A DNA stretch of 47,797 bases, taken from a virus (taxonomy: Duplodnaviria; Heunggongvirae; Uroviricota; Caudoviricetes). Positions within the stretch are counted from its first letter, which is position 1. The number at the start of each line of letters is the position of its first letter. Positions 4,741-47,797 of the stretch are shown one piece after another. The stretch lies in IMG/VR virus record IMGVR_UViG_2571042438_000008; one strand, written 5' to 3'. The translations under genes and the position numbers were made by a program. The notes under the pieces were generated by a model, which worked only from the letters and a program-made list of their open reading frames with translations, did not search any database and was not told the origin of the DNA.

Positions 4741-4780
4741 TATGATTGTGGGTGTCTGGTTGGAAAGTGACCAGATATGG

Positions 4781-4861
4781 AAACAAAAAGCCCGCAGATA
4801 AATCTGCGGGCTTCTTGCGACATCCACGGAAAACCAACAACTAACCATGGGCGCCTCGACA
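4781..4861 (-). ncRNA. Candidate CopA-like antisense RNA of the repA leader (~80 nt)
   Basis: Minus-strand perfect -10 TATAAT (plus coords 4868-4873) with weak -35; minus-strand intrinsic terminator (10-bp GC-rich stem 4789-4812 followed by a U-run); lies inside a 16-bp inverted repeat of the leader (4823-4838 / 4875-4890). Confidence 0.45.
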
Positions 4862-4905
4862 ACTCCCATTATACGTTGGTTTTCCGTGGACGCAAGAGCG
4901 AACAT

Positions 4906-5754
4906 ATGGATAGACCAATGCCGTCTCTACGTTCAGCTTACGTTTGTAATTTGTCGCCGGAGTTCCAGCCTCCAAAGCACCATACGCACAAGCTGCCGCT
5001 GGTGTTATCTGATGCTTTACAGCGCATTAATGGGCGTGATCTTACGTGTGAGGTTGCGTTCTACGTTAATCAACCGTCAGAGCGGAAGCGCCGGATAAAC
5101 GAGCATCGTCGTCGGGCGATTAATGCTGTGATCGCTGCGATTTTGCACCATGTAAACATCATTTCTAAGCGGGTTCTGGCCAGTGCTGAGGCGTTGGCTG
5201 ATTTTTGCGGCCTGTCTACCGTATCCGAAGCTGGGAACAAGTCTATAACGCGCTGTACAAGGGCGTTGTCGCAACTGAAAGCGTTAGGTTTTATTGATTA
5301 TGAACGTCGCTGGGATCGGGTGAATAAACAGTATTGGCCAGCGAAAATAGAGATTCGTGATCAACTGCTGGAAACCGTTGGTATTACTGAACAAGCATGG
5401 AGACGTGCGGTTAGCCAGAAACTTAATTACTTCAATGCGAAGAATAGCGAACGGCTTAAAAAAGCGATAACGGAGGCTGATTATAAGCGTATTGTTATTC
5501 AGGAGCAGATGGAGAATGTATGGCATCAGAGGAAGACGGCCAGAGAGATAAAGGCAAAACAGAAAGCAGCGGAGAGAGCTGCGCGTCTTGTTCGGGAAAA
5601 GGGAGAGGCCGAACTTCGTCATCAAATCACTAGAGAGGTTAGCCAGGAATTTGCTGATGGCATGTATCCTGGAGCTGACCTTGCATATTTACGATCCCTC
5701 GTTGAGCAGCGTTATAACAGGTTAAGAAAGACCTGGAAATCACTCCAACATTAA
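4906..5754 (+). CDS. repA: Replication initiator RepA, IncFII (RepFIIA) family
   Basis: Translation aligns with R100/R1 RepA1 as recalled (RRRAINAVIAAIL..., SITRCTRALSQLKALGFIDYE vs SITRATRALTFLSELGLITYQ); start chosen at the in-frame ATG 4906 by length; the ORF is open upstream to 4777. Confidence 0.85.
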   Translation: MDRPMPSLRSAYVCNLSPEFQPPKHHTHKLPLVLSDALQRINGRDLTCEVAFYVNQPSERKRRINEHRRRAINAVIAAILHHVNIISKRVLASAEALADFCGLSTVSEAGNKSITRCTRALSQLKALGFIDYERRWDRVNKQYWPAKIEIRDQLLETVGITEQAWRRAVSQKLNYFNAKNSERLKKAITEADYKRIVIQEQMENVWHQRKTAREIKAKQKAAERAARLVREKGEAELRHQITREVSQEFADGMYPGADLAYLRSLVEQRYNRLRKTWKSLQH

Positions 5755-5895
5755 CCCACCTGAATGATGAATCCGGTTTTACCGGAGGATTATCTACGTC
5801 GCAATAAAATATCTGTTCAAAAAACAATCTAAATTAATTTTCTCTAAACCGGAACACAGCAAAAATATCGCCTTTACAGGCATCGGCTAATAAAG

Positions 5896-5904: not shown

Positions 5905-6385
5905 GTTTTGATATGTATATGCAAATGGTTTTTTATAATAGATGCACTAAACAAATAAATGCAAAATCACTTTCTTTTATTAAGACTTTCTTTATTTAAC
6001 TTACGCAGGCTTTGCCTGTGAATATGTTCGCCCTTGCAGCGAGCTAAAGCTCGCGCCGGTTCGAGTCGCTACGCTCAAATATACCTCCTCCGGCACTTGC
6101 CGGAGGCATGGAGCAGCCTGATCATCCTTTTCGAAACGGCGCGTTTCGAACTATACAAAATCAATTTATATAAGGCCGAAATAAGGCCTACGGCCGGGCT
6201 TTGCAGGAGGAAGGGGCGAGCCTTATCAATAAACGTCGAGAAATACGCACACAGTAGCCATCAGAACGCGATAAAACGTAAGAAACATCATTTCCTATTA
6301 GACATAGAAAACTTGTCTTATACGCAATGTAGTAAATTTCTATTGCCACATAGGAAAAGATTTCCTACCATCGTAGATATAATAA

Positions 6386-6685
6386 ATGGAGATGGTTATG
6401 GATAAAGATACTGTTTTAAAAATGTTGAATCCGGCTTGTTTAAAAAAAGCGGATGAATGGGAATCTCCTACATGTGGAGAAGTTCGGGCAGTCATTGGCC
6501 TCACCGGAATGAGTGGCTCGCAGTTGGCCAAAAAACTAGGCTTAAAAGATAGTCGCAATGTTCGCAACTGGCAGATGTTAAAGGAGTCCACATCCAGATC
6601 CAGCATTCCGTATGCAGCCTGGGCGCTGCTGTGTTACTTCGCTGGGTTAGGGTTAATCTTCATTGATAACAAAACAGATGTTTGA
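6386..6685 (+). CDS. Small XRE-type HTH protein with hydrophobic C-terminus
   Basis: HTH-like segment LTGMSGSQLAKKLGLKDSRNVRNWQ; C-terminal AAWALLCYFAGLGLIFI. Confidence 0.4.
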   Translation: MEMVMDKDTVLKMLNPACLKKADEWESPTCGEVRAVIGLTGMSGSQLAKKLGLKDSRNVRNWQMLKESTSRSSIPYAAWALLCYFAGLGLIFIDNKTDV

Positions 6686-7896: not shown

Positions 7897-8181
7897 TTAC
7901 TTACCATTTTTGCGGTTTTTTTCGGACTTCATAAGCTGGCTAACGCGCCCAGGTGTGATATTTAACATGCGGCTTACTTCAGCTTGTGATCCTACTTCCT
8001 CTACTAGCGATGCAACATAGCGAGATTTTCCTGAGGAGGTTAATCCATTATATGTTGCTCGTGCGACTTTTCCCTGAGCTTCTCTCATATCAACTAATGC
8101 CTGAGCAACCTGCTCAAAACCTTTAATTGTTACTTCTGTTAATGCTCGAATAGCATCAATTTCAGATTTTGGTTTAGCCAT
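7897..8181 (-). CDS. Small DNA-binding regulator (C-terminal HTH)
   Basis: C-terminal SQAEVSRMLNITPGRVSQL; divergent from cassette copy 1; dyad just upstream of its start. Confidence 0.45.
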   Translation of the reverse strand: MAKPKSEIDAIRALTEVTIKGFEQVAQALVDMREAQGKVARATYNGLTSSGKSRYVASLVEEVGSQAEVSRMLNITPGRVSQLMKSEKNRKNGK

Positions 8182-8247: not shown

Positions 8248-8335
8248 ACCATTGCTGAAATGTCTTTTTCAAGACCTTGCCAATAAGCTAAACAAAAATG
8301 TTTAATGTGCAGCCTAAAAAAGCACCAGTCACTAT

Positions 8336-8448
8336 TATTTATATAATTATAGATTTATATAAAAAGTGCTTTACGGGTGGGAAAAAATTTCCTATGGTTA
8401 TACCCGAAACCGAGCGATACCCGCCCTGGTTAAACCGGAGATAACCCG
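8336..8448 (+). promoter_or_regulatory. Promoter-leader cassette, copy 1 (AT-rich dyad motif, -35 TTTACG 8370-8375, 17-nt spacer, -10 TATGGT 8393-8398, conserved leader, GGAGA RBS)
   Basis: ~88 bp near-identical to 17311-17398 and 24189-24276 (two substitutions seen in this copy); sigma70-like hexamers with 17-bp spacing. Confidence 0.55.
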
Positions 8449-8829
8449 ATGAGCATGATTAAAATCCGCAAAAACGCTTTCCTTAAAATTCAAACTATCC
8501 TGGCTGGTTCTGTCGGCGTGATTTGCCGTTCTTCTTCAAGCCGCATCGATGACGGCTACGATGATGAGTATCGTGTGTCCTCGTGCGATGAGGCTTTAAC
8601 CTGGCTGAAGGAGAATCAGGAACGTGCCCAGGTATATCTGGAAACAGAGAACGGCAATCAGATGCTGCGTATTAGCGGTCGTTATGGATTTGAAACTACA
8701 TTCATGGCCTATTTTAATCAGGCTTACTTTGACAAGGAGCTGGCCTGGTACACTGACCGCATGAGCAAAAGCGAGCCAGCCCCGATTACACCGCCGAACA
8801 ATAAACCATTTTTATTCCTCGTTAAGTAA
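8449..8829 (+). CDS. Hypothetical protein (126 aa), first gene after cassette copy 1
   Basis: ORF with GGAGA RBS 9 nt upstream; no recognisable domain. Confidence 0.5.
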   Translation: MSMIKIRKNAFLKIQTILAGSVGVICRSSSSRIDDGYDDEYRVSSCDEALTWLKENQERAQVYLETENGNQMLRISGRYGFETTFMAYFNQAYFDKELAWYTDRMSKSEPAPITPPNNKPFLFLVK

Positions 8830-9975: not shown

Positions 9976-11175
9976 TTATGGTCTGCTTTTCTGTGCCAGC
10001 TTATCAGCACATGTTTTTATCAGATCCTGTAGTGTCCTGGCTGGCAGGTTTGCATCCAGTACGCTGAGTATGCTGTTGTGATCTGCTTGGTCGACTACTT
10101 TGCCTGTCGGTGGTAGTAGCTTGAGCTGAGGATTCAGGTTTTCGTCAAAGCTGATAAGTGCTCTGGCGTTTCTGAGCAGATCAAGAAGTAAGGCTGATAT
10201 CACATTTTCCTGAGTCATTGCTGGCAGACTTAGCGCCGCTTTGGTTTTCCCTGTTGCCTTGTCAAACTCCTTGATTAGTTCCTTCCTGTAGTTCGGTTCC
10301 GTTAATAGCCGATTATGCTCTGTTGCCGCGCGGATAATCGTTTTTTCCTGGTATAGTCGTTTAGCCAGATCACGCTCGTACTGTGTTTTTAACACGCTGC
10401 TGATAGCGTTAAAGGCTTCAATGTAGGCCAGCTTGATATCTTTCACGCCTGGACCGTCGATGCTCTCCATGAGCAAGGTAAATCCGTCTTTTGTCATGCG
10501 ATAGATTGTTATTTCGCGGTCGCTTCCTTCCAGCGGTCGTTGCTCTTTAAAGAAGTGACGCGCCGCAGCCGTGCGAGGAATGCGTAGCGCATCGATGGCC
10601 ATAACGATGGAATTGTTTGTGGTGCTGAATGCCTGGGCAACATCGGCTGAGGTTGTGAGTGGCTCGTTGTTGCACACTTTAATGTAAAACATCGGTTTGG
10701 CGTTGAGCGTATCGACAACCTCACGAGCATTGCTTGGCGAGACGGTTACGGTCGCGGCCGTTTGCGCGTTCCGGCTGAAATAGCAGTCTTCCAGCCGTTC
10801 GAACACATCCCACGCTTGGTTAGTTTCAAGCATTTTGGCGTGACGTGCAGCCCCGCGTTCTGTCCAGAGAATGAGGGAGCGGGCTTTCGGGGAAATTTGT
10901 AACCCTCTTAAAGATGGTTGCACATTTTGTGAGTTACTTAAAGTAACCCGCAAATTTTGTGAGTGACTTAAAGTCACTCGCAAAGTTTTTAACTCATCGC
11001 CAGCCACTTTGAAAAAATGCTTTCCTTCAATAAAGCGGTTTGCGTTACGTGAGTAATTTTTTTTGATGTTATCAACGTCTGTGCCGTATAGCTTTGCCAG
11101 TAGTTCAGTAGTGATAACGGGGATCTGGTTATGCAGGATAGGCTGTAGGGTGTTAACGGTCGGAAGCGTTTTCAT
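9976..11175 (-). CDS. Antirepressor-like protein (ORF6N/KilA-N-like N-terminus plus Rha-like domain)
   Basis: N-terminal VITTELLAKLYGTDVDNIKKNYSRNANRFIEGKHFFKV and a central Rha-like segment, as recalled; 399 aa. Confidence 0.65.
   Translation of the reverse strand: MKTLPTVNTLQPILHNQIPVITTELLAKLYGTDVDNIKKNYSRNANRFIEGKHFFKVAGDELKTLRVTLSHSQNLRVTLSNSQNVQPSLRGLQISPKARSLILWTERGAARHAKMLETNQAWDVFERLEDCYFSRNAQTAATVTVSPSNAREVVDTLNAKPMFYIKVCNNEPLTTSADVAQAFSTTNNSIVMAIDALRIPRTAAARHFFKEQRPLEGSDREITIYRMTKDGFTLLMESIDGPGVKDIKLAYIEAFNAISSVLKTQYERDLAKRLYQEKTIIRAATEHNRLLTEPNYRKELIKEFDKATGKTKAALSLPAMTQENVISALLLDLLRNARALISFDENLNPQLKLLPPTGKVVDQADHNSILSVLDANLPARTLQDLIKTCADKLAQKSRP
10924..10983. repeat. Two tandem 30-bp repeats inside the antirepressor gene, each carrying a palindrome (GAGTTAC-TTAAA-GTAACCC; GAGTGAC-TTAAA-GTCACTC)
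   Basis: Units 10924-10953 and 10954-10983 differ at 3 positions, two of them compensatory for the inverted repeat; a degenerate third unit lies at ~10893-10923. Confidence 0.7.
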
Positions 11176-11399
11176 TTTGCACCTCCCATAACTACTTTGG
11201 TTACGAGGGAGATTTTTGCGTCAGAAACAGCGTTATCGTTGCTGGCGATGCGCATAGCTTCGCGCTCGATGATTTCAGTCAGGCGGAATTTATCGGCGTA
11301 TGAGGCTTTCTTGAGAAGGATCTTTACGAGGTTGACGTAATAGTCATGGGGTAGGTTTGTCATTGTGATATCTCCAGTATATGGAACTATCACCGCCAT
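11172..11399 (-). CDS. Small protein upstream of, and overlapping, the antirepressor gene
   Basis: 75-aa ORF with a 4-nt overlap to the antirepressor start. Confidence 0.4.
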   Translation of the reverse strand: MAVIVPYTGDITMTNLPHDYYVNLVKILLKKASYADKFRLTEIIEREAMRIASNDNAVSDAKISLVTKVVMGGAK

Positions 11400-11658
11400 T
11401 CGAGGCTAATCAAATGGTGGTGAGCCGTACAGGGTTAGCCTTACCGGACACAATGACGAACCGGCGCGGATTTCTCCGCCCCTGTACGACCCACCATAAT
11501 TTGGGCGTAACAGTGCTCTACGCATAAAAAAACCGCTAACGCGGTATGCGCCATCGTGTTATTCAGGAGGCTAATCCCGGCCGTAGATTTTGCTACGGCT
11601 CGGAAAGTGTCCACCAATGGCGCATTTATGTCAATACGGCGGGATTTTAACAGAGACA

Positions 11659-11673
11659 ACCACATAGCGTGGG
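11659..11673. promoter_or_regulatory. Degenerate operator-like dyad ACCAC-ATAGC-GTGGG upstream of the antirepressor operon
   Basis: 9/10 arm match to the ACCAC-N5-GTGGT dyad. Confidence 0.3.
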
Positions 11674-12116
11674 TTTATTGGTAGGCAGAAACAAAAAAAC
11701 CGCCCTATTGAGGACGGTTCTTTCGTGCTGATCGGATTCGCGGTCCTTTCAGCATTACGTTGTTGTATAAACAACCACGCAAGCACAAGCAGCAAGTTAA
11801 TTTTACCCAAAAGGTAATAATAGTCCACTATTATGCTTCAAAAAATTGTGGTTCTTGTTGTGCCTGCAAACTCACAGATTGTGGGTAGGTTACTGATTTT
11901 GTGAAAATAAACGAGTTTTTTCGTTTAATTTCTTTCCTATTACTAATCTTAAAATAATCGTAAAATACCTGTGGACCTTCCCGCCGATTCGCACCCGGGC
12001 ACCGACTTTAGGGGAGGATTCTCCGTTGCCGTACATGCAAGCACAAGCAGCCGTGCTTGCTCTCGCGTTGTTTTCGTCGGTGGGGATGCCGTGAAACGGC
12101 CTGTAAGGGCCATACA

Positions 12117-12239
12117 ATGAAAAAATACTGTATGTGTATTTTTATCGTTGTTACTGGGGCTTTGTTTACGCCACATGGGGAGGGTTGGAAGATTACTGAT
12201 AACGCTCTGAATGTGACGATAAACATTAGCAGCAAGTAG
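12117..12239 (+). CDS. Small hydrophobic peptide (40 aa; MKKYCMCIFIVVTGALF...)
   Basis: ATG 12117 in an otherwise ORF-poor, hairpin-rich region; followed 7 nt later by a strong intrinsic terminator. Confidence 0.3.
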   Translation: MKKYCMCIFIVVTGALFTPHGEGWKITDNALNVTINISSK

Positions 12240-12245
12240 CGATTA

Positions 12246-12268
12246 GGCCCCTTCGGGGGCCTTTTTTT
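12246..12268 (+). terminator. Rho-independent terminator
   Basis: GGCCCC-TTCG-GGGGCC stem-loop followed by T7. Confidence 0.8.
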
Positions 12269-12490: not shown

Positions 12491-12739
12491 TTACTTCTGG
12501 TTGTATTGAGCCTTGAGTAACTCAAAAGACTTTGTCAGCACTTCTTTCAATGACATATCCATTGAGCTGGCGAACGTTTTGTACTCGCGTTTAAATTCAG
12601 GGTCGACGTTAAACGCCATTTGTGCCCCACCTGATTTGGTTCTGGTTGGCGTTTCAGTCGGGTCGAAAACCTGCGGTTGTTCGATCGATGGCGGTACGCC
12701 TTTGCTGTTCTTCTTTGGTGGTTTTGATGGTGCGGCCAT
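12491..12739 (-). CDS. ParG-like ribbon-helix-helix centromere-binding protein
   Basis: 82 aa; basic N-terminal tail (PSKPPKKNSKG); C-terminal FNVDPEFKREYKTFASSMDMSLKEVLTKSFELLKAQY resembles the ParG/RHH family; directly downstream of parA. Confidence 0.5.
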   Translation of the reverse strand: MAAPSKPPKKNSKGVPPSIEQPQVFDPTETPTRTKSGGAQMAFNVDPEFKREYKTFASSMDMSLKEVLTKSFELLKAQYNQK

Positions 12740-12782
12740 GTGTATCCCCTCTTATATAAATCTATAAAACTATAATTATATA

Positions 12783-13451
12783 TTATGCGGCAGTAGTCAG
12801 AGCCTCAAGCTGGTTGATAATCCCCTGAATAACGTCGTCTGCCTTTTTGCGTGGCGCAACGTATGAGCACTCAATGAGGCTTAAGCCCTTATCCTGAGCT
12901 TTGCTCAGAGCTGGCTTGTGGGGAATGTACTTATCGACAACAAAGTATGGCGTATTAGCCAGGTACTCTTGGGCTTCAATATAGTCAGCTTCGTTTTCAG
13001 CCGCGCCGGAAAACACCATGCAAATTTTCTTGATTGGTACACCCTTTTTAACGATGCCGTGAGCAGTGTTAACGGTGGTTTCCAGGTCATCGGTAGAGAA
13101 TCGGGTTGGCAAAATAACCATATCCAGAAATTCAGATAGCTTCGGTACTGATTCAGATGCGTAGGCACCGCCATCGACGATAACCAGGTCGTATACTTCT
13201 GATTCGATGATTTTCTGGACTTGTGATGGTGTGCCGCACGGCTGCGCCGCGATTGCTGGTTCGATATTGTTGGCCATTCTGCGTTGTACCCAACGCGTTA
13301 CCGTTCCGTTAAGCACATCCATATCGATCAGGCATACATTCCAGCCAGCCTTTGCATAAGCAACTGCTAAAGCACGGGCAATTGTTGATTTGGTTACGCC
13401 GCCTTTTCCGTTGAAAATACCTACAGAGATAGTCATTTGTCGAGGCTCCAT
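12783..13451 (-). CDS. parA: ParA/ParF-type partition ATPase (type Ib)
   Basis: Deviant Walker A GIFNGKGGVTKST; ~220 aa; the true start may be the ATG at 13436, which has a GGAG RBS. Confidence 0.85.
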   Translation of the reverse strand: MEPRQMTISVGIFNGKGGVTKSTIARALAVAYAKAGWNVCLIDMDVLNGTVTRWVQRRMANNIEPAIAAQPCGTPSQVQKIIESEVYDLVIVDGGAYASESVPKLSEFLDMVILPTRFSTDDLETTVNTAHGIVKKGVPIKKICMVFSGAAENEADYIEAQEYLANTPYFVVDKYIPHKPALSKAQDKGLSLIECSYVAPRKKADDVIQGIINQLEALTTAA

Positions 13452-13586
13452 GTGTTTGGTTATATAATTCTATAAATCTATATTTATAGAACGAGGTAAG
13501 CATAACCAACTTTTTGGCTGATGAAAAGCGTTTTATATAATTATATAAATCTATAATCATATAAGCGGGCGTTAGCCCGCTTGCAG

Positions 13587-14710: not shown

Positions 14711-14747
14711 GTCTCATCAATCGTGAATGGTGGGTTATTTATACATT

Positions 14748-14762
14748 ACCACATTTAGTGGT
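14748..14762. promoter_or_regulatory. Operator dyad ACCACATTTAGTGGT (cI-proximal)
   Basis: Perfect ACCAC-N5-GTGGT in the cI/cro-like intergenic region. Confidence 0.6.
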
Positions 14763-14829
14763 TTTCACATGGTAAGACGAGAGGTGGACCACAAATAGAA
14801 GGTTATTTTTTGTTTCGCCCATTGAAAAA

Positions 14830-14865
14830 CTCACGATATGTGGTTTTAATACCACGTATCGTGGT
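14830..14865. promoter_or_regulatory. Two adjacent operator dyads (CTCACGATATGTGGT 14830-14844; ACCACGTATCGTGGT 14851-14865), cro-like proximal
   Basis: Tandem dyads with 21-bp centre spacing just upstream of the 14885 start. Confidence 0.6.
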
Positions 14866-14884
14866 TTTAACTGGAGTTCGTTAA

Positions 14885-16857: not shown

Positions 16858-17235
16858 GTGAGACGCGATCTGGATAGCTTGTTTGAGCTATGGGCGCTGT
16901 GGGTGCGCAATGGCTGCAACGCCCGTAGCGGTTTCGCGTCGATGTTAGAAATGATGATGGTTACGCGCTGCCAGTTTACCGGAGGGGGCGGCGCACCAAA
17001 TGACTCACTGGAAACCAGTATAGAGGGAGCGGTGACGGCCCTCACGGTAGTTGATGAGACTGCGGCGCTGGTTGTCCGAATTGAATACGGGGCGTGGGAG
17101 ATTCGGGGCCTCGACATAAATGCACCGCATATTGATAAAGCCCACGCCCTTTCTCTTAGCCTCAGACAGTATCGCCGGAAGCTGGCAAAAGCCAGGGCGT
17201 ATGTTGTCGACTATTTGAAAAAGCGAAGAGAGTAA
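16858..17235 (+). CDS. Possible late-gene regulator (Q-like antiterminator candidate, weak)
   Basis: Last gene of the early operon, immediately upstream of cassette copy 2; N-terminal LFELWALWVRNG loosely resembles small Q proteins but lacks the Cys cluster. Confidence 0.3.
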   Translation: MRRDLDSLFELWALWVRNGCNARSGFASMLEMMMVTRCQFTGGGGAPNDSLETSIEGAVTALTVVDETAALVVRIEYGAWEIRGLDINAPHIDKAHALSLSLRQYRRKLAKARAYVVDYLKKRRE

Positions 17236-17286: not shown

Positions 17287-17404
17287 AATCTATAAATATA
17301 TAATTATAGATTTATATAAAAAGTGCTTTACAGGTGGGAAAAAATTTCCTATGGTTATACCCGAAACCGAGCGATACCCGCCCTGGTTAAACCGGAGAAA
17401 TCTG
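17287..17404 (+). promoter_or_regulatory. Promoter-leader cassette, copy 2 (dyad AAATCTATA-N12-TATAGATTT, -35 TTTACA 17327-17332, -10 TATGGT 17350-17355, conserved leader, GGAGA RBS)
   Basis: Near-identical to copies 1 and 3 over ~88 bp; 17-bp spacer. Confidence 0.55.
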
Positions 17405-18472
17405 ATGAATAAACAAGTAATTATTTCTGACTGGATCAACAACCCTAACAGCCTGTTAAGCACTGATACTGGCTACCTATTACGCCATGTTAATGGTCGT
17501 ATGGTCAAAAGCGATGAGCACGAAACCTTTTTCTTTGTTGAAGACGATGGGCGTATCTATGAGGATGGTTACTCTTATGAAGCCCAAACTGGTTGTATCC
17601 CTGCGGAGCTGGTGGACGTAACAGAAGATCTGCGCAAAGCATGGCTTGAACAGCAGCAGCGCGGAGATGATTACGTAAACACCTATCAGGAACGCCAGAA
17701 CGCGCGTCTTGCCCGATATATTGCTCGTGCAGAAAAAGCCAGAAAAGAAGGTGCGGTAGCGCATAAGCGAGCGCATGACCTGTTGGATGTGATCCCGTTA
17801 GGCCAGCCGATTTTAGTTGACCATTATAGCGCGAAAGGCCATCGCCGCCGTTTGTCTAAAGCTGATGCGTTATTCAGAAAAGCGTTTGTTGAATGCGAAA
17901 GTAAAGCATCACACTACGAGAGCAAAGCCGCAGGTGTTGGTCGTAATGGAATTTCGTCTGATGATCCTGATGCGCTATTTAAGTTGCTTCGTAAGCTGCA
18001 AGGCTGCATGAAGTCACACGTCAAAATGAAGGCCGCAAATAAGGCCATTCGCAAATACAAAAAAGACCAAATACAGCAGCTTTCTGCATTAATCGATCTC
18101 AGGTTTACAGAAAGCGAAGCCAAAGAGTTACTGGCCGGAGATTTCTGTGGGCACATCGGATTCCCTTCATACGCACTGAGCAACAATAACGCCGAAATCA
18201 AACGACTACAGAGCCGTATTAAGGAGCTTGAATCGGTCAAGTCTGTAACAGGAGCACAGCGCGAAGAATACGACGGCTTTTCTATGGAGATAGATCCAGA
18301 GGATAACCGCATCCTGTTTTATTTCCCTGGCAAACCAGAGGCAAACATTCGTTCGCTGCTTAAATCACGCGCCTTTAAGTGGAGTCCAACCCGTAATGCA
18401 TGGGTTCGCAAGATTACTCCAAACGCCCTGGCTGATGCCCGATATCTAAAAGAATCGCTATTGAAAGCCTGA
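17405..18472 (+). CDS. Large hypothetical protein (355 aa), first gene after cassette copy 2
   Basis: Start set at ATG 17405 (GGAGA RBS); the upstream ATG 17351 lies in the conserved leader. Confidence 0.6.
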   Translation: MNKQVIISDWINNPNSLLSTDTGYLLRHVNGRMVKSDEHETFFFVEDDGRIYEDGYSYEAQTGCIPAELVDVTEDLRKAWLEQQQRGDDYVNTYQERQNARLARYIARAEKARKEGAVAHKRAHDLLDVIPLGQPILVDHYSAKGHRRRLSKADALFRKAFVECESKASHYESKAAGVGRNGISSDDPDALFKLLRKLQGCMKSHVKMKAANKAIRKYKKDQIQQLSALIDLRFTESEAKELLAGDFCGHIGFPSYALSNNNAEIKRLQSRIKELESVKSVTGAQREEYDGFSMEIDPEDNRILFYFPGKPEANIRSLLKSRAFKWSPTRNAWVRKITPNALADARYLKESLLKA

Positions 18473-18482
18473 CAGTAAGCCT

Positions 18483-18504
18483 ACGGCGGGACGTCTCCCG
18501 CCGT
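18483..18504 (+). terminator. GC-rich hairpin after 17405..18472
   Basis: CGGCGGGA-CGTC-TCCCGCCG stem-loop; weak U tract. Confidence 0.35.
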
Positions 18505-18528
18505 ATATAGAATTATATATTTATACAA

Positions 18529-18831
18529 ATGTATAAGGACGCCTCGACAATGAAACGCAAAATTATTAACCCCCAAGATGTGATTAATTTCCTGACCGAT
18601 CACCCATGTTCAAAAGTGGACGTAATCGCGGAGCACATTGGTGTGTCGCAGAACTCTATGCGTTGCAGACTGAGAAGCATGGTTGCCGAAGGACAGATAA
18701 CAACCAGGAAAATAAATGGTTGCCTGTACTACTCCGCTAAACCGGAATTGCCATTTGGCATGAATCCTAACTCCATGTTGTTTAACACCTTATTAGCCAA
18801 AGTTAAGCCGTTGAGAGGGGCTGTGGCATGA
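18529..18831 (+). CDS. Putative winged-HTH protein
   Basis: 100-aa ORF; DVIAEHIGVSQNSMRCRLRSM resembles an HTH. Confidence 0.4.
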   Translation: MYKDASTMKRKIINPQDVINFLTDHPCSKVDVIAEHIGVSQNSMRCRLRSMVAEGQITTRKINGCLYYSAKPELPFGMNPNSMLFNTLLAKVKPLRGAVA

Positions 18832-21045: not shown

Positions 21046-21233
21046 GCAATTTAGCGAGGCTACGAGCAGTATTTAGATATTCAGAGCGGGTAATGAGGCA
21101 CATACAACCGAAAACATGGCAGAAATTGGATTCTGTGGGAGTTAAGTTGGAGAAGATTACTCAACTTAAGCAGTGGAATATCGGCGAATATTATGGAAGT
21201 CCTGGTCGGGATGTTCAGTTGGTAAAAAGTTGA
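21042..21233 (+). CDS. Hypothetical small protein
   Basis: 63-aa ORF. Confidence 0.3.
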   Translation: MSNLARLRAVFRYSERVMRHIQPKTWQKLDSVGVKLEKITQLKQWNIGEYYGSPGRDVQLVKS

Positions 21234-21379
21234 ACATTGCTTTTTTATTGATCGATTAACCACGATATGAAGGTTTTTTTATGGGGAAACCTTGTTTTAG
21301 GTGGTAACTGGGTGTAGTGTTTCATTTAACGTAGTAAAACTGCGTTAAGCGATTACCGCGTAATTTGTTGCTTTATGAA

Positions 21380-21410
21380 GCCCTGCCTTTTTCGGCGGGG
21401 CTTTTTTTTT
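21380..21410 (+). terminator. Strong intrinsic terminator immediately upstream of the lysis cassette
   Basis: GCCCTGCC-TTTTTC-GGCGGGGC stem-loop followed by T9. Confidence 0.8.
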
Positions 21411-22906: not shown

Positions 22907-23030
22907 TACCGCCTGTGATTGGGTAAAGCCCATCTACCTGACTGATCACGATATCGATGTTATGGACCGCCAGACAAAGAAAGATATTCTGGCTCATAAC
23001 AGGGCATGGGAAATCAACTGCCCCAAGTAA
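22821..23030 (+). CDS. o-spanin (Rz1-like lipoprotein), partly nested in the i-spanin gene in the +1 frame
   Basis: Lipobox LIASC after a hydrophobic N-terminus; starts inside 22628..22906. Confidence 0.6.
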   Translation: MYIRVLTIWLMTMLIASCGSRGSVPVVVDTACDWVKPIYLTDHDIDVMDRQTKKDILAHNRAWEINCPK

Positions 23031-23199
23031 TATATATTTCTATAATTATATAAATATATAGTTACAACATTCTATGCGCTTTTCTCATGGGCGCACGCAT
23101 CAACCATGTTTGTCTGATATGCCGCCGCGCCCAAAAATCCTGAATTTATTGGCTGGGATTTTCGTGCGCGGCGCCACACCAGACAAACAGATCAAATAT

Positions 23200-23275
23200 G
23201 GCCCCTTAGCTCAGTGGTTAGAGCAGGCGACTCATAATCGCACGGTCATCGGTTCAAATCCGGTAGGGGCCACCA
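23200..23275 (+). tRNA. tRNA with CAU anticodon (Met or Ile2/lysidine type), 76 nt including CCA
   Basis: Cloverleaf elements readable: acceptor GGCCCCT/AGGGGCC, D-arm AGCTCAGTGGTTAGAGC, anticodon loop CTCATAA, T-arm GGTTCAAATCC, 3' CCA; close to E. coli tRNA-Ile2 as recalled. Confidence 0.85.
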
Positions 23276-24171: not shown

Positions 24172-24282
24172 AATTATATAATTATATATTTATATAAAAA
24201 GTGCTTTACAGGTGGGAAAAAATTTCCTATGGTTATACCCGAAACCGAGCGATACCCGCCCTGGTTAAACCGGAGAAATCTG
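24171..24282 (+). promoter_or_regulatory. Promoter-leader cassette, copy 3 (-35 TTTACA 24205-24210, -10 TATGGT 24228-24233, conserved leader, GGAGA RBS)
   Basis: Near-identical to copies 1 and 2. Confidence 0.55.
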
Positions 24283-24552
24283 ATGAAAGTACAAGACCGT
24301 GAAGTAGTAAAAAACCTCCTGCAATACCTGACCTCAAAAAACCTGACGGGCAGCGTTGAGTTCCGTGAAGCGTTAAAACATTTCAACGTCACTACGGTTT
24401 ATCGTTGGGAAAACAAACATTCTGAAAGACCGTATGTGGTGGATGTTTTTGCGCCTGATATTGAGTGCGGTTTTGAGCGTCATTCGTTCAAGGAGAAACA
24501 TTCTGCTGATTTTTTTTGTGAGGTTGTATGTGCGGCAGGAGATGATGAGTGA
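24283..24552 (+). CDS. Hypothetical protein (90 aa), first gene after cassette copy 3
   Basis: Start set at ATG 24283; the upstream ATG 24229 lies in the conserved leader. Confidence 0.5.
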   Translation: MKVQDREVVKNLLQYLTSKNLTGSVEFREALKHFNVTTVYRWENKHSERPYVVDVFAPDIECGFERHSFKEKHSADFFCEVVCAAGDDE

Positions 24553-25921: not shown

Positions 25922-26155
25922 CGCATTACAGCAGCTCTTGTGCTTATCAGGGGCTGCGATAATGCGCAAACCAAAGCTGCCTCATTAACTCCAGCTCGCT
26001 GTGGAGTTAATGCTGGTGGCTTTTTTATTACTGGAAGGTGGGCGACCGCCGTCAGTTGCGACCTGACGACAGTCATTCATACCCACAGGGTGCCGTGGAT
26101 ACAAACCGAGGCCCACTTGCTTGCACAAGCGAGGGGATTTTAGCGGATAAACGGC

Positions 26156-26779
26156 ATGACAAAACATCTTAATGTGGTTTCTTTACCACTTTCTGTGTTG
26201 ATTGGTTATGAAAAGAACGCTCGCACACACTCCGTGGAGCAGGTAGATCAGATTGTTGCCAGCATACAGGAGTACGGATGGACTAATCCGATCCTGATAG
26301 ACGAGAACAACGTTGTAATTGCTGGTCATGGTCGAATTGCTGCGGCCACTCAGTTGGGGATGGATGAGGTTCCCTGCATTGTTCTGGAAGGGCTAACGGA
26401 GAATCAGAAGAAGGCATATCGTCTGGCCGACAACCGTATTCCGCTGAATGCTGGTTGGGATGAAGAGTTGTTAAGCGCGGAGCTTGCAGATCTTGCGGCC
26501 GATGATTTTGCTCTGGACTCAATTGGTTTTACTCAGCGCGAACTGGATAACTTATTGAGTGCGGCGGTCTACGATGACACAGAGGGTATGGATATCCCAT
26601 TTGAGAAGGATGAGGCCAAATCAGGCGTAAAAGTTCAGTACCTGTCATTTGGAGGTCATAAAATCCCGGCAACGGATGAGGAAGCGGATCGTTTTGACTG
26701 CGCGGTGTCTCGTTATGTTGATGATAATGGCAGCTATATCGGATTTGTATCCGCATTGCTGGCTGGGGAGGTGTGCTGA
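26156..26779 (+). CDS. ParB N-terminal (ParB/Srx nuclease-like) domain protein, paralog 1
   Basis: LIDENNVVIAGHGRIAAATQLGMDEVPCIVL; paralogous to 29446..30036. Confidence 0.7.
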   Translation: MTKHLNVVSLPLSVLIGYEKNARTHSVEQVDQIVASIQEYGWTNPILIDENNVVIAGHGRIAAATQLGMDEVPCIVLEGLTENQKKAYRLADNRIPLNAGWDEELLSAELADLAADDFALDSIGFTQRELDNLLSAAVYDDTEGMDIPFEKDEAKSGVKVQYLSFGGHKIPATDEEADRFDCAVSRYVDDNGSYIGFVSALLAGEVC

Positions 26780-47261: not shown

Positions 47262-47797
47262 TATCTTTAATGTTAGCTTGTTGGATGTTTTACCTCCTAA
47301 CTTAGCTAGCGATCCCAACGTGATAGCTATGTCGAAAGCTATTGATGATGAACTACAAGCAATTAACAATTTAATATATAAGACAGAAATATATAGCGTT
47401 GTTGATAACCTGGACTCAGTTGTTCTCGATCATTTAGCTTGGCAATGGAATGCTGATACATGGAGGGATAGTTGGCCTGTATTGTTAAAGCGTTCTGTTT
47501 TTAAATCAATAATACGAACAAAGCGAATAAAGGGTACAAGGGCAGCGGTTGAAGATGTAGTAAATAGCTTGGGTGGAGAGGTAAACATAACAGAATGGTT
47601 TGAAACATCACCACCTGGCGAACCATATACAGCCTCAATTGTTGCTTCGATTAACTCTTTTGATGGTGCTGTTCCTTCGAAAGAGATGTTGGAGGATACG
47701 TTAAGAAGTATCAAGAGTGCAAAGTCGGCAAGAACACTATTTACATTTTCGCAAGCAACCAATGTTTCAGGTGGTGTTGGTATTGTCGGTGCTTTCC
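47254..47797 (+). CDS. Baseplate gpI-like protein, 5' part (open at window end; continues at 1..289 through the terminal duplication)
   Basis: ATG 47254 overlapping the gpJ-like stop; ORF not terminated within the window; frame matches 23..289. Confidence 0.65.
   Translation, partial: MADIFNVSLLDVLPPNLASDPNVIAMSKAIDDELQAINNLIYKTEIYSVVDNLDSVVLDHLAWQWNADTWRDSWPVLLKRSVFKSIIRTKRIKGTRAAVEDVVNSLGGEVNITEWFETSPPGEPYTASIVASINSFDGAVPSKEMLEDTLRSIKSAKSARTLFTFSQATNVSGGVGIVGAF
47547..47797. repeat. Terminal direct repeat: 47547..47797 is identical to 1..251
   Basis: Read directly: both begin ggttgaagatgtagtaaatagc and end gtcggtgctttcc. Confidence 0.9.

Follow-up and report, generated by a model that had tools for sequence, protein, structure and literature searches.

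Three promoter-leader cassettes of a tailed phage-plasmid resemble the KorC-repressed kil-kor promoters of IncP-1 plasmids

In the IncP-1 plasmids, KorC represses the klcA, kleA and kleC genes (PMC7314908), and KorC-repressed kil-kor promoters have been known in RK2 since 1988 (Thomas et al. 1988; Kornacki et al. 1990, 1993; as cited in PMC7314908). Expression of klcA, an anti-restriction gene, is held very low by KorA and KorC together, and its induction in fresh transconjugants amounts to 120- to 220-fold (PMC7314908). KorA operators are present at klcAp, kleAp and kleCp, and the KorB operators lie further upstream than the KorA operator (PMC2665229). In plasmid pOXA-48 a KorC site lies between the -35 and -10 elements of the korC operon promoter, and korC is required for maintenance (PMC12365149). 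Here we describe three near-identical promoter-leader cassettes in a 47,797 nt virus record (IMGVR_UViG_2571042438_000008, Caudoviricetes; "the window" denotes this whole stretch of DNA). It is very probable that these cassettes belong to the KorC-controlled kil-kor promoter-leader family of the klcAp/kleAp/kleCp type, that they are carried by a phage-plasmid, and that they are repressed in the established element and fire in a burst upon its entry into a new cell, the repression and the burst being predictions from sequence. The KorC branch of the kil-kor regulon is known for just this signature, near-identical promoter-leader cassettes that precede unrelated genes. The KorC-controlled promoter-leader module of IncP-1 plasmids is thus already known, and the window shows it in another type of host and with a different co-operator; new are the phage-plasmid host, arrays of TATA-type boxes in place of the KorA and KorB operators, cargo genes of unknown function and covariation support for a leader hairpin. 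The anatomy of the cassettes, their homology at the protein and DNA levels, their conservation and the counts given below are observations.

The near-identical block runs for about 102 nt from an AT-rich repeat through CCGGAGA and was placed by MAFFT alignment at 8340-8441, 17297-17398 and 24175-24276; a repeat search of the window returned a single 127 nt family at 8334, 17291 and 24169 (identity 85%, 100% and 95%, respectively). Chance cannot produce a triple identity over 100 nt. The genes that follow are from unrelated families, all read from the + strand: cassette 1 precedes a gene for a 126 aa protein of unknown function (8449-8829; phrog_8090), cassette 2 a 355 aa DUF3560 protein (17405-18472; phrog_6744) whose relatives are located in the establishment regions of IncW and PromA plasmids, and cassette 3 an 89 aa protein of unknown function (24283-24552; phrog_6143) that heads a run of small genes. 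A known acr gene was looked for downstream of the cassettes and none was found. Alignment and the PHROG and Pfam family assignments thus bear out the initial annotation in its claim of three near-identical copies before unrelated genes. Both of the substitutions it had reported in copy 1 exist, but only one falls within the 88 bp core, at the sixth base of the -35 element (TTTACG versus TTTACA in the others); the second lies just past the core, in the spacer between the ribosome binding site (RBS) and the ATG, where copy 1 has GGAGATAACCCGATG rather than GGAGAAATCTGATG, so that two versions of this spacer are present among the three copies. Copy 3 has a single change, in the upstream AT-rich repeat.

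Each cassette consists, in order, of a TATA array, a -35 element TTTACA, a 17 bp palindrome T(A/G)GGAAA-N3-TTTCCTA, a -10 element TATGGT and a leader of about 45 nt with a hairpin and an RBS. The core promoters lie on the + strand at 8370-8398 (cassette 1; -35 TTTACG at 8370-8375, palindrome TGGGAAAAAATTTCCTA at 8378-8394, -10 TATGGT at 8393-8398), 17327-17355 (cassette 2; -35 TTTACA at 17327-17332, palindrome at 17335-17351, -10 TATGGT at 17350-17355) and 24205-24233 (cassette 3; -35 at 24205-24210, palindrome at 24213-24229, -10 at 24228-24233). A consensus scan again gave TTTACA, a 17 nt spacer and TATGGT, in agreement with the sigma-70-like promoter described previously. The spacer consists almost wholly of the palindrome, the last two bases of which are the first two of the -10 element; it reads TGGGAAAAAATTTCCTA in the E. 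coli type of the element and is perfect, TAGGAAAATATTTCCTA, in the Salmonella type. Allowing up to two mismatches, T(A/G)GGAAA-N3-TTTCCTA is found exactly four times in the window (0.12 expected), three times in the cassette spacers and once, as TAGGAAAAGATTTCCTA at 6351-6367, in the promoter of a gene for a helix-turn-helix (HTH) protein. This fourth promoter (6343-6371, + strand; -35 TTGCCA at 6343-6348, -10 TACCAT at 6366-6371) has the same arrangement of -35, 17 nt and -10 as the other three. A Salmonella relative has the same four palindromes, and the copy at the HTH gene is also present in Enterobacter and K. aerogenes relatives. The spacer operator, its fourth copy and the sharing of the AT-rich repeat with the par locus (below) did not figure in the initial annotation.

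The gene behind the fourth palindrome (6398-6685, + strand) encodes a 95 aa HTH protein that is 47% identical (E 4e-22) to the annotated KorC of RP1, which is of the RP4/RK2 type. Its next relative outside the phage-plasmids (52% identical) is encoded at the korC position of an IncP-1-like plasmid with the gene order klcA-klcB-X-kleE-korA-incC-korB, and the klcA promoter of that plasmid contains TAGGGCATTATGCCCTA. Among PDB structures its matches are to AcrIF24, in the HTH domain (E 1.4e-5), and to Aca3 (E 0.016). Its identity to RP1 KorC and its relative at a korC position argue that it is a KorC-family repressor, and it is the putative binder of all four palindromes. Since the palindromes have the TAGG...CCTA ends common to KorC operators and a KorC-like gene lies on the same element, they appear to be KorC-type operators.

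The cassettes themselves are also homologous to those of IncP-1 plasmids. In a side-by-side comparison, the window cassettes are collinear with three promoters of RP1 (klcAp, kleAp and kleCp) and two of pLME1 (klcAp and kleAp): all have, in this order, an operator, a -35 element, two to three bases, a 17 bp palindrome whose last TA opens the -10 element, a leader of about 45 nt, ACCGGAG and the ATG. The block AAAGTGCTT(G/T)ACAGG is common to the IncP-1 promoters and the window cassettes, and the operator is in the same register as in RP1, pLME1, pHP-42 and others. An nhmmer profile was built from 21 IncP-type klcA, kleA and kleC promoter-leaders, with phage-plasmid sequences excluded. In the window it finds exactly the three cassettes (E 1.5e-5, 7.9e-5 and 8.8e-5; the next match has an E above 1), and in the Salmonella relative pAR-0407-1 (L022) it likewise finds three (E 1e-8 to 2e-7), with alignments that extend from upstream of the -35 element to the ATG. 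Because a profile made from IncP sequences alone finds exactly these three places, the cassettes are taken to be homologues of the KorC-repressed kil-kor promoters. Among the plasmids of PLSDB, the IncP-1 cassette occurs at 630 places in 332 plasmids, usually two to four per plasmid and in front of klcA, kleA and other small genes; RP1 has three (klcAp, kleAp and kleCp) and other IncP-type plasmids two to four. The inner bases of the palindrome vary with the plasmid family (GGCA, GACA, GGCT, GCCA or GAAA), as would be expected if operator and KorC co-evolve within each family. The window proteins that were scanned showed no KorA or KorB domain. The sequence TTTAGCGGATAAA at 26139-26151, 5 nt ahead of a ParB/Srx-like gene (26156-26779), is one mismatch away from the IncP-1 KorB operator consensus and within chance expectation.

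Comparison of the E. coli-type element with the diverged L022, whose DUF3560 protein is 68% identical, shows three cassettes at the same three syntenic positions in both. The cassettes are 88-92% identical between the two types, whereas the aligned genomes average 75% (standard deviation 8%, 60 nt windows) and the flanking genes are 69-72% identical. The leader lacks a conserved reading frame, as a 1 nt indel in the Salmonella type shifts the frame and a TAAGGT variant of the -10 element removes the ATG; a short upstream open reading frame or N-terminal extension was considered, the ATG of TATGGT being in frame with the genes behind copies 2 and 3, and was rejected since that ATG is lost in TAAGGT and frame-shifted in the Salmonella type. 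The earlier proposal that selection acts on the DNA or RNA of this noncoding leader itself is thus upheld. Across the family (loci L001-L021) the -10 element is TATGGT or TAAGGT, and the spacer versions GGAGAAATCTGATG and GGAGATAACCCGATG swap cassette positions between genomes, which points to recombination (gene conversion) among the copies. All three L022 copies differ from the E. coli type in the same, type-specific ways, and other contigs have a third type. Swapped spacers and type-specific substitutions common to all three copies of a genome are also what would be seen if the copies were a recent duplication, kept alike by recombination and without any shared regulation, but very little credence can be given to this explanation: elements with proteins only about 68% identical have the three copies at the same syntenic places, the conservation of the copies is about two standard deviations above the genome mean, and they are homologous to a regulated module of other plasmid families. 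The copies thus appear to evolve in concert and under purifying selection.

Copy 2 lies directly after the last gene of the early rightward operon, and the palindrome is between -35 and -10, where the λ Q protein binds; both facts agree with the suggestion in the initial annotation that the cassettes are analogs of PR'/qut, late promoters onto which a Q-like antiterminator, the product of the gene immediately before copy 2, is loaded. We nevertheless regard it as extremely improbable. The candidate antiterminator, the 125 aa product of 16858-17235, gives no Q-like signal in Pfam, PHROGs, NCBIfam or the PDB; it belongs to phrog_5285 (unknown function), has no Pfam or PDB match and has one weak, sub-threshold NCBIfam match (PA0613), and its gene is separated from copy 2 by a further gene in the Salmonella relative. 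A scan found no terminator within the cassettes, between promoter and start codon, where the RBS and ATG directly follow the leader. Copies 1 and 2 are not ahead of late genes, and homologous cassettes are present on hundreds of conjugative plasmids without phage genes. A better PR'-tR'-like layout is found just before the holin gene, at 21230-21404, where about 150 nt of untranslated DNA separate a promoter-like TTGAAC from a very strong intrinsic terminator (21377-21404; 11 bp stem and T run) that ends 20 nt before the holin gene (21424). As judged from its layout, this region would be a better candidate than the cassettes for an antitermination-dependent late promoter.

Upstream of the -35 element in each cassette is the AT-rich repeat. 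The initial annotation correctly saw an AT-rich motif here but took it for a dyad; it is instead a tandem array of 8 bp units, TMTAKAWW, with three to four boxes per cassette (8338-8363, 17287-17320 and 24173-24198, all + strand). Two adjacent TMTAKAWW units, with up to one mismatch, are matched 42 times in the window (0.3 expected), in eight clusters and one isolated place, 42079, inside the tape-measure gene. The cassettes and the par locus have three clusters each, and single clusters follow the DUF3560 gene and the lysis genes; all eight are positionally conserved in the Salmonella and Yersinia-phage relatives. The par locus comprises a small Walker-type ParA of 217 aa with CbiA/ParA/MipZ domains (12783-13436, - strand) and, downstream of parA, a gene for an 82 aa ParG-like candidate centromere-binding protein (12494-12739, - strand); one array lies between these two genes (12751-12784) and two lie upstream of parA (13459-13492 and 13532-13563). 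The otherwise unrelated plasmid L030 (NZ_CP037908.1), a 28.5 kb conjugative cfr plasmid, has a comparable locus (ParA 45% and small protein 39% identical) with like arrays at the same two par positions, that is, between the two genes and upstream of parA. Two features of type Ib (ParF/ParG-parH) partition loci are present, namely a small Walker-type ParA with a small protein encoded downstream, and short-repeat arrays at the par promoter. The remaining two arrays are that after the DUF3560 gene (18504-18529; position conserved in L022 and L001) and that in the interval between the lysis genes and a tRNA gene (23029-23062), neither of which adjoins a KorC-type promoter; the former is preceded by a hairpin and ends about 20 nt ahead of the next start codon. 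These two might serve as roadblocks, as additional centromeres or as parts of a different kind of promoter.

Small ribbon-helix-helix (RHH) partition proteins such as ParG and omega bind short-period arrays and repress promoters, and the 82 aa protein is the putative binder of the TATA arrays. A search of the PDB by sequence gave no match for it. To our knowledge, the TATA sequence of the boxes is new. As the same boxes punctuate the par operon, this ParG-like protein is a likely second repressor of the cassettes. The arrays could alternatively be dispersed partition sites or plain UP elements rather than operators, with KorC alone regulating the cassettes. The arrays at 18504 and 23029 have no adjacent cassette, that at 12751 lies between two cistrons, and the Sop centromeres of the phage-plasmid N15 are dispersed, all of which would agree with such roles. 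On the other hand, the cassette arrays always stop 6 nt short of the -35 element, just where homologous IncP-1 promoters have their KorA operator; the asymmetric units are oriented in line with the downstream gene; and the roles of partition site and operator are not mutually exclusive. An exclusive partition-site or UP-element role is considered the less likely explanation, and the arrays are treated below as probable operators that adjoin KorC-controlled promoters.

The leaders, all on the + strand, lie at 8399-8448 (hairpin 8408-8431, RBS GGAG 8437-8440), 17356-17404 (hairpin 17365-17388, AACC GAGCG AUACC CGCCC U GGUU; RBS GGAG 17394-17397) and 24234-24282 (hairpin 24243-24266, RBS GGAG 24272-24275). 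When 26 different leaders were aligned, taken from IncP-1 plasmids (alpha and beta), further IncP-type plasmids, IncL/M and the phage-plasmids, a hairpin of 8-9 bp with a bulge of one base was seen to be retained shortly before the RBS, although its sequence differs (GGCC GGGC ... GCCC A GGUC in IncP-1 versus AACC GAGCG ... CGCCC U GGUU in the phage-plasmid). Of the hairpin cells, 94.7% are paired, compared with 14-50% when the 3' partner is slid, and compensatory changes are seen at three pairs: the phage-plasmid clade and L031 each have AU for GC, and the mcr-1 IncP clade has UA for CG. None of 500 shuffles reaches the covariation score of the alignment, RNAalifold independently returned the outer stem, and a G-U pair is kept in 19 sequences, which argues that the conserved object is RNA rather than a DNA palindrome. 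Variation among the phage-plasmid leaders is concentrated in two loop positions. No statement on such a hairpin was found in the literature consulted; it might act on the stability of the mRNA or on the access of ribosomes.

These properties, a conservation equal to that of the promoter and a hairpin with compensatory changes across IncP-1, IncL/M and phage-plasmids whose variation is mostly in the loop, would also be expected if the leader were the regulatory heart of the cassette, either riboswitch-like or a target of a small RNA or an RNA-binding protein that controls translation of the three genes. There is a precedent in Aca2, which controls acr mRNAs. This reading, raised as an alternative in the initial annotation, is nonetheless unlikely. 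An 8-9 bp hairpin is too small for a ligand-binding aptamer, and the operator palindrome is not repeated in the leader. Rfam has no match for copy 2 at E values up to 10 and gives only chance-level matches for the RP1 klcA leader, and a search of the whole window for duplexes with the leader, including the C4, isrK and ryfA RNAs of the element, found nothing above background save the antisense strands of the cassettes themselves. A riboswitch or shared small RNA target thus finds no support, and control by KorC at the promoter is the preferred explanation. A near-palindrome in the leader, CTGGTTAAACCGG, was also considered and set aside, no convincing further sites having been found. The sequence CCGGTTTTACCGGAGGA at 5773-5789, just past the repA stop codon, resembles the 3' end of the leader, CTGGTTAAACCGGAGAA, and this may be chance.

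The ends of the window repeat (1-251 is the same as 47547-47797), so the element is circular and about 47.5 kb in size. It encodes an IncFII-type RepA (4777-5754), a HigBA toxin-antitoxin pair, a CI-like repressor and a P1-type C4/Ant immunity region, and its phage modules comprise lysis genes, a λ-like head module and a contractile (myovirus) tail. Near-identical DNA has been deposited as Yersinia phages vB_YpM_39, 41 and 44, and these three records have the cassette copies too. The element is present as a 47-50 kb plasmid in 74 of 5,426 complete E. coli genomes, with 217 cassette places (median three per genome), and in 65 PLSDB records from Escherichia, Salmonella and Klebsiella, nearly all with three cassette places; the reference strain E. 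coli ATCC 25922 carries it. Across the E. coli genomes, PLSDB plasmids and Yersinia phage records the three copies recur at the same three syntenic places. Its occurrence both as a plasmid and in phage records, together with its gene content, therefore identifies the element as a phage-plasmid. A literature search found no paper on this element and none connecting KorC with phage-plasmids (the co-mentions found were unrelated).

Several other features of the element were recorded. The gene at 7897-8181, upstream of cassette 1, encodes a 94 aa protein with a sigma-70 region-4-like HTH and is an insertion that is absent from pECO-b75 and the Yersinia phage records. This gene, higBA and the first 47 nt of cassette 1 are also present in the conjugative plasmid L030, where the cassette is cut by IS26; the shared segment is evidence of exchange between the phage-plasmid and conjugative plasmids. 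The P1-type immunity region (9976-12267) contains, on the - strand, a C4 antisense RNA (11413-11501), an isrK-like RNA (11526-11599) and an antirepressor with ORF6N and Rha domains (9976-11175) and, on the + strand, a ryfA-like RNA (11971-12267). Between the CI-like repressor gene and the early operon (14711-14884) there are repeated operator-like palindromes of the ACCAC...GTGGT type and a hairpin with a 14 bp stem (14831-14864); neither ACCAC...GTGGT CI-type operators nor the motifs of 14711-14884 occur in the cassettes. A tRNA gene at 23200-23275 has the anticodon CAU, which ARAGORN assigns to Met; its equivalent in pECO-b75 is tRNA-Ile in RefSeq.

How the cassettes might work can be outlined from these parts. 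Host RNA polymerase with sigma-70 would use the -35 TTTACA and -10 TATGGT elements, and the transcript would begin a few bases after the -10 element, so that its leader of about 45 nt would carry the hairpin before the RBS. A dimer of the KorC-like protein, bound to the spacer operator of all four promoters, would be expected to exclude the polymerase, because the operator fills the spacer and overlaps the -10 element, and the gene at 6398-6685 would regulate itself through the fourth operator. The par protein bound to the adjoining array probably adds to the repression. The cassettes would then be silent in the established plasmid-prophage. Entry into a cell free of repressor would cause a transient burst, lasting until the repressors accumulate, in a manner like the zygotic induction of klcA on RP4, and this burst would express three unrelated genes of an "establishment" or kil type. 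In such an arrangement the IncP-1 design of a partition-linked repressor upstream and KorC in the spacer appears to have been kept and the upstream partner exchanged. A more far-reaching interpretation, which is offered only tentatively, is that the phage-plasmid has taken over the IncP-1 kil-kor circuit, retaining KorC and replacing KorA and KorB with ParG-like arrays, for the joint timing of an entry burst of three possibly anti-defence genes, and that the leader hairpin is an unrecognised cis-acting RNA element of plasmid establishment genes.

If this is correct, a striking repeat in a phage-plasmid that is widespread in E. coli and Salmonella, ATCC 25922 included, would be explained by a principle of control already known from plasmids, whereby global repressors encoded by the element hold down strong promoters that fire upon entry into a new host. 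It would connect three fields that are usually separate, IncP-1 kil-kor regulation, phage-plasmid biology and Aca-type anti-defence control, and it nominates three uncharacterised genes as entry-phase functions, among them a DUF3560 protein of a kind common in plasmid establishment regions. It also draws attention to a conserved hairpin in the 5' untranslated region across the aligned IncP-type, IncL/M and phage-plasmid cassettes.

A number of points weigh against this interpretation as a whole or against parts of it. Matches in the window to the KorA operator OA (GTTTAGCTAAAC) and the KorB operator OB do not exceed chance, and none of the cargo genes is a klc or kle homologue, Pfam giving no Antirestrict or Kle match. 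The left arm of the E. coli-type operator is imperfect (TGGG for TAGG), and the -10 element of the cassettes is weak as well as polymorphic (TATGGT/TAAGGT). The TATA arrays could be extra centromeres or simply AT-rich UP elements. For the 82 aa protein an RHH fold is weakly suggested by an hhalign comparison with ParG of TP228, which gives the expected RHH register, yet at an E of 0.05 and a probability of 1%, and the AlphaFold2 model has only two helices, preceded by a short segment and by a long N-terminal tail that is disordered (predicted local distance difference test score 69), a monomer being uninformative about the ribbon. The covariation support for the hairpin is moderate, as it comes from about three independent events among related sequences, and the copy 2 leader folded alone is no more stable than its shuffles (z = -1.27). 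Finally, the binding partners, the sign of regulation, the transcription start, the timing and the role of the hairpin have been deduced from sequence.

Comparison with described systems places the cassettes as follows. The λ PR'-qut-tR' region likewise has a sigma-70 promoter with a protein-binding element between -35 and -10, but the cassettes come without a Q homologue or a promoter-proximal terminator, and copies 1 and 2 are not followed by late genes. Partition repeats that are present both at the par operon and at distant promoters, as the TATA arrays are, occur with KorB (the ParB of RK2), omega of pSM19035, ParG of TP228 and, reportedly, Sop of N15; the arrays of RHH centromere-binding proteins have a short period of 7-8 bp, as here, although in the phage-plasmid binding of the arrays by the 82 aa protein is presumed and its RHH fold only suggested. 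The Aca systems (AcrIF24 with its HTH domain, Aca3, and Aca11 with two promoters) resemble the cassettes in having an inverted repeat inside a strong promoter and one repressor for several promoters (PMC9638941; PMC12658196), but in the window no known acr gene is downstream and the repressor gene lies outside the controlled operons. The KorC proteins of IncL/M pOXA-48 and IncU RA3 are global regulators of several modules, and the position of the site implies autoregulation (PMC12365149); the IncL/M cassette (L044) has the same layout and leader as that of the phage-plasmid, and pOXA-48 has a single predicted KorC site compared with the four found here. The closest relatives are klcAp, kleAp and kleCp of RK2/RP4/RP1. 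They differ in the inner bases of the operator (GGCA/TGCC there, GAAA/TTTC here); in the phage-plasmid the place of the KorA operator is taken by TATA arrays shared with a small-ParA par locus, without KorA or KorB operators or genes, the cargo is not klc or kle, and the replicon is a tailed phage-plasmid rather than a conjugative plasmid. In both, however, three near-identical modules per replicon stand before different genes, a TAGG-N9-CCTA palindrome takes up the spacer and extends over the first two bases of the -10 element, a second operator (here the putative one formed by the array) lies directly upstream of the -35 element, a homologous hairpin leader ends in ACCGGAG, and a KorC-family repressor is encoded by the same element.

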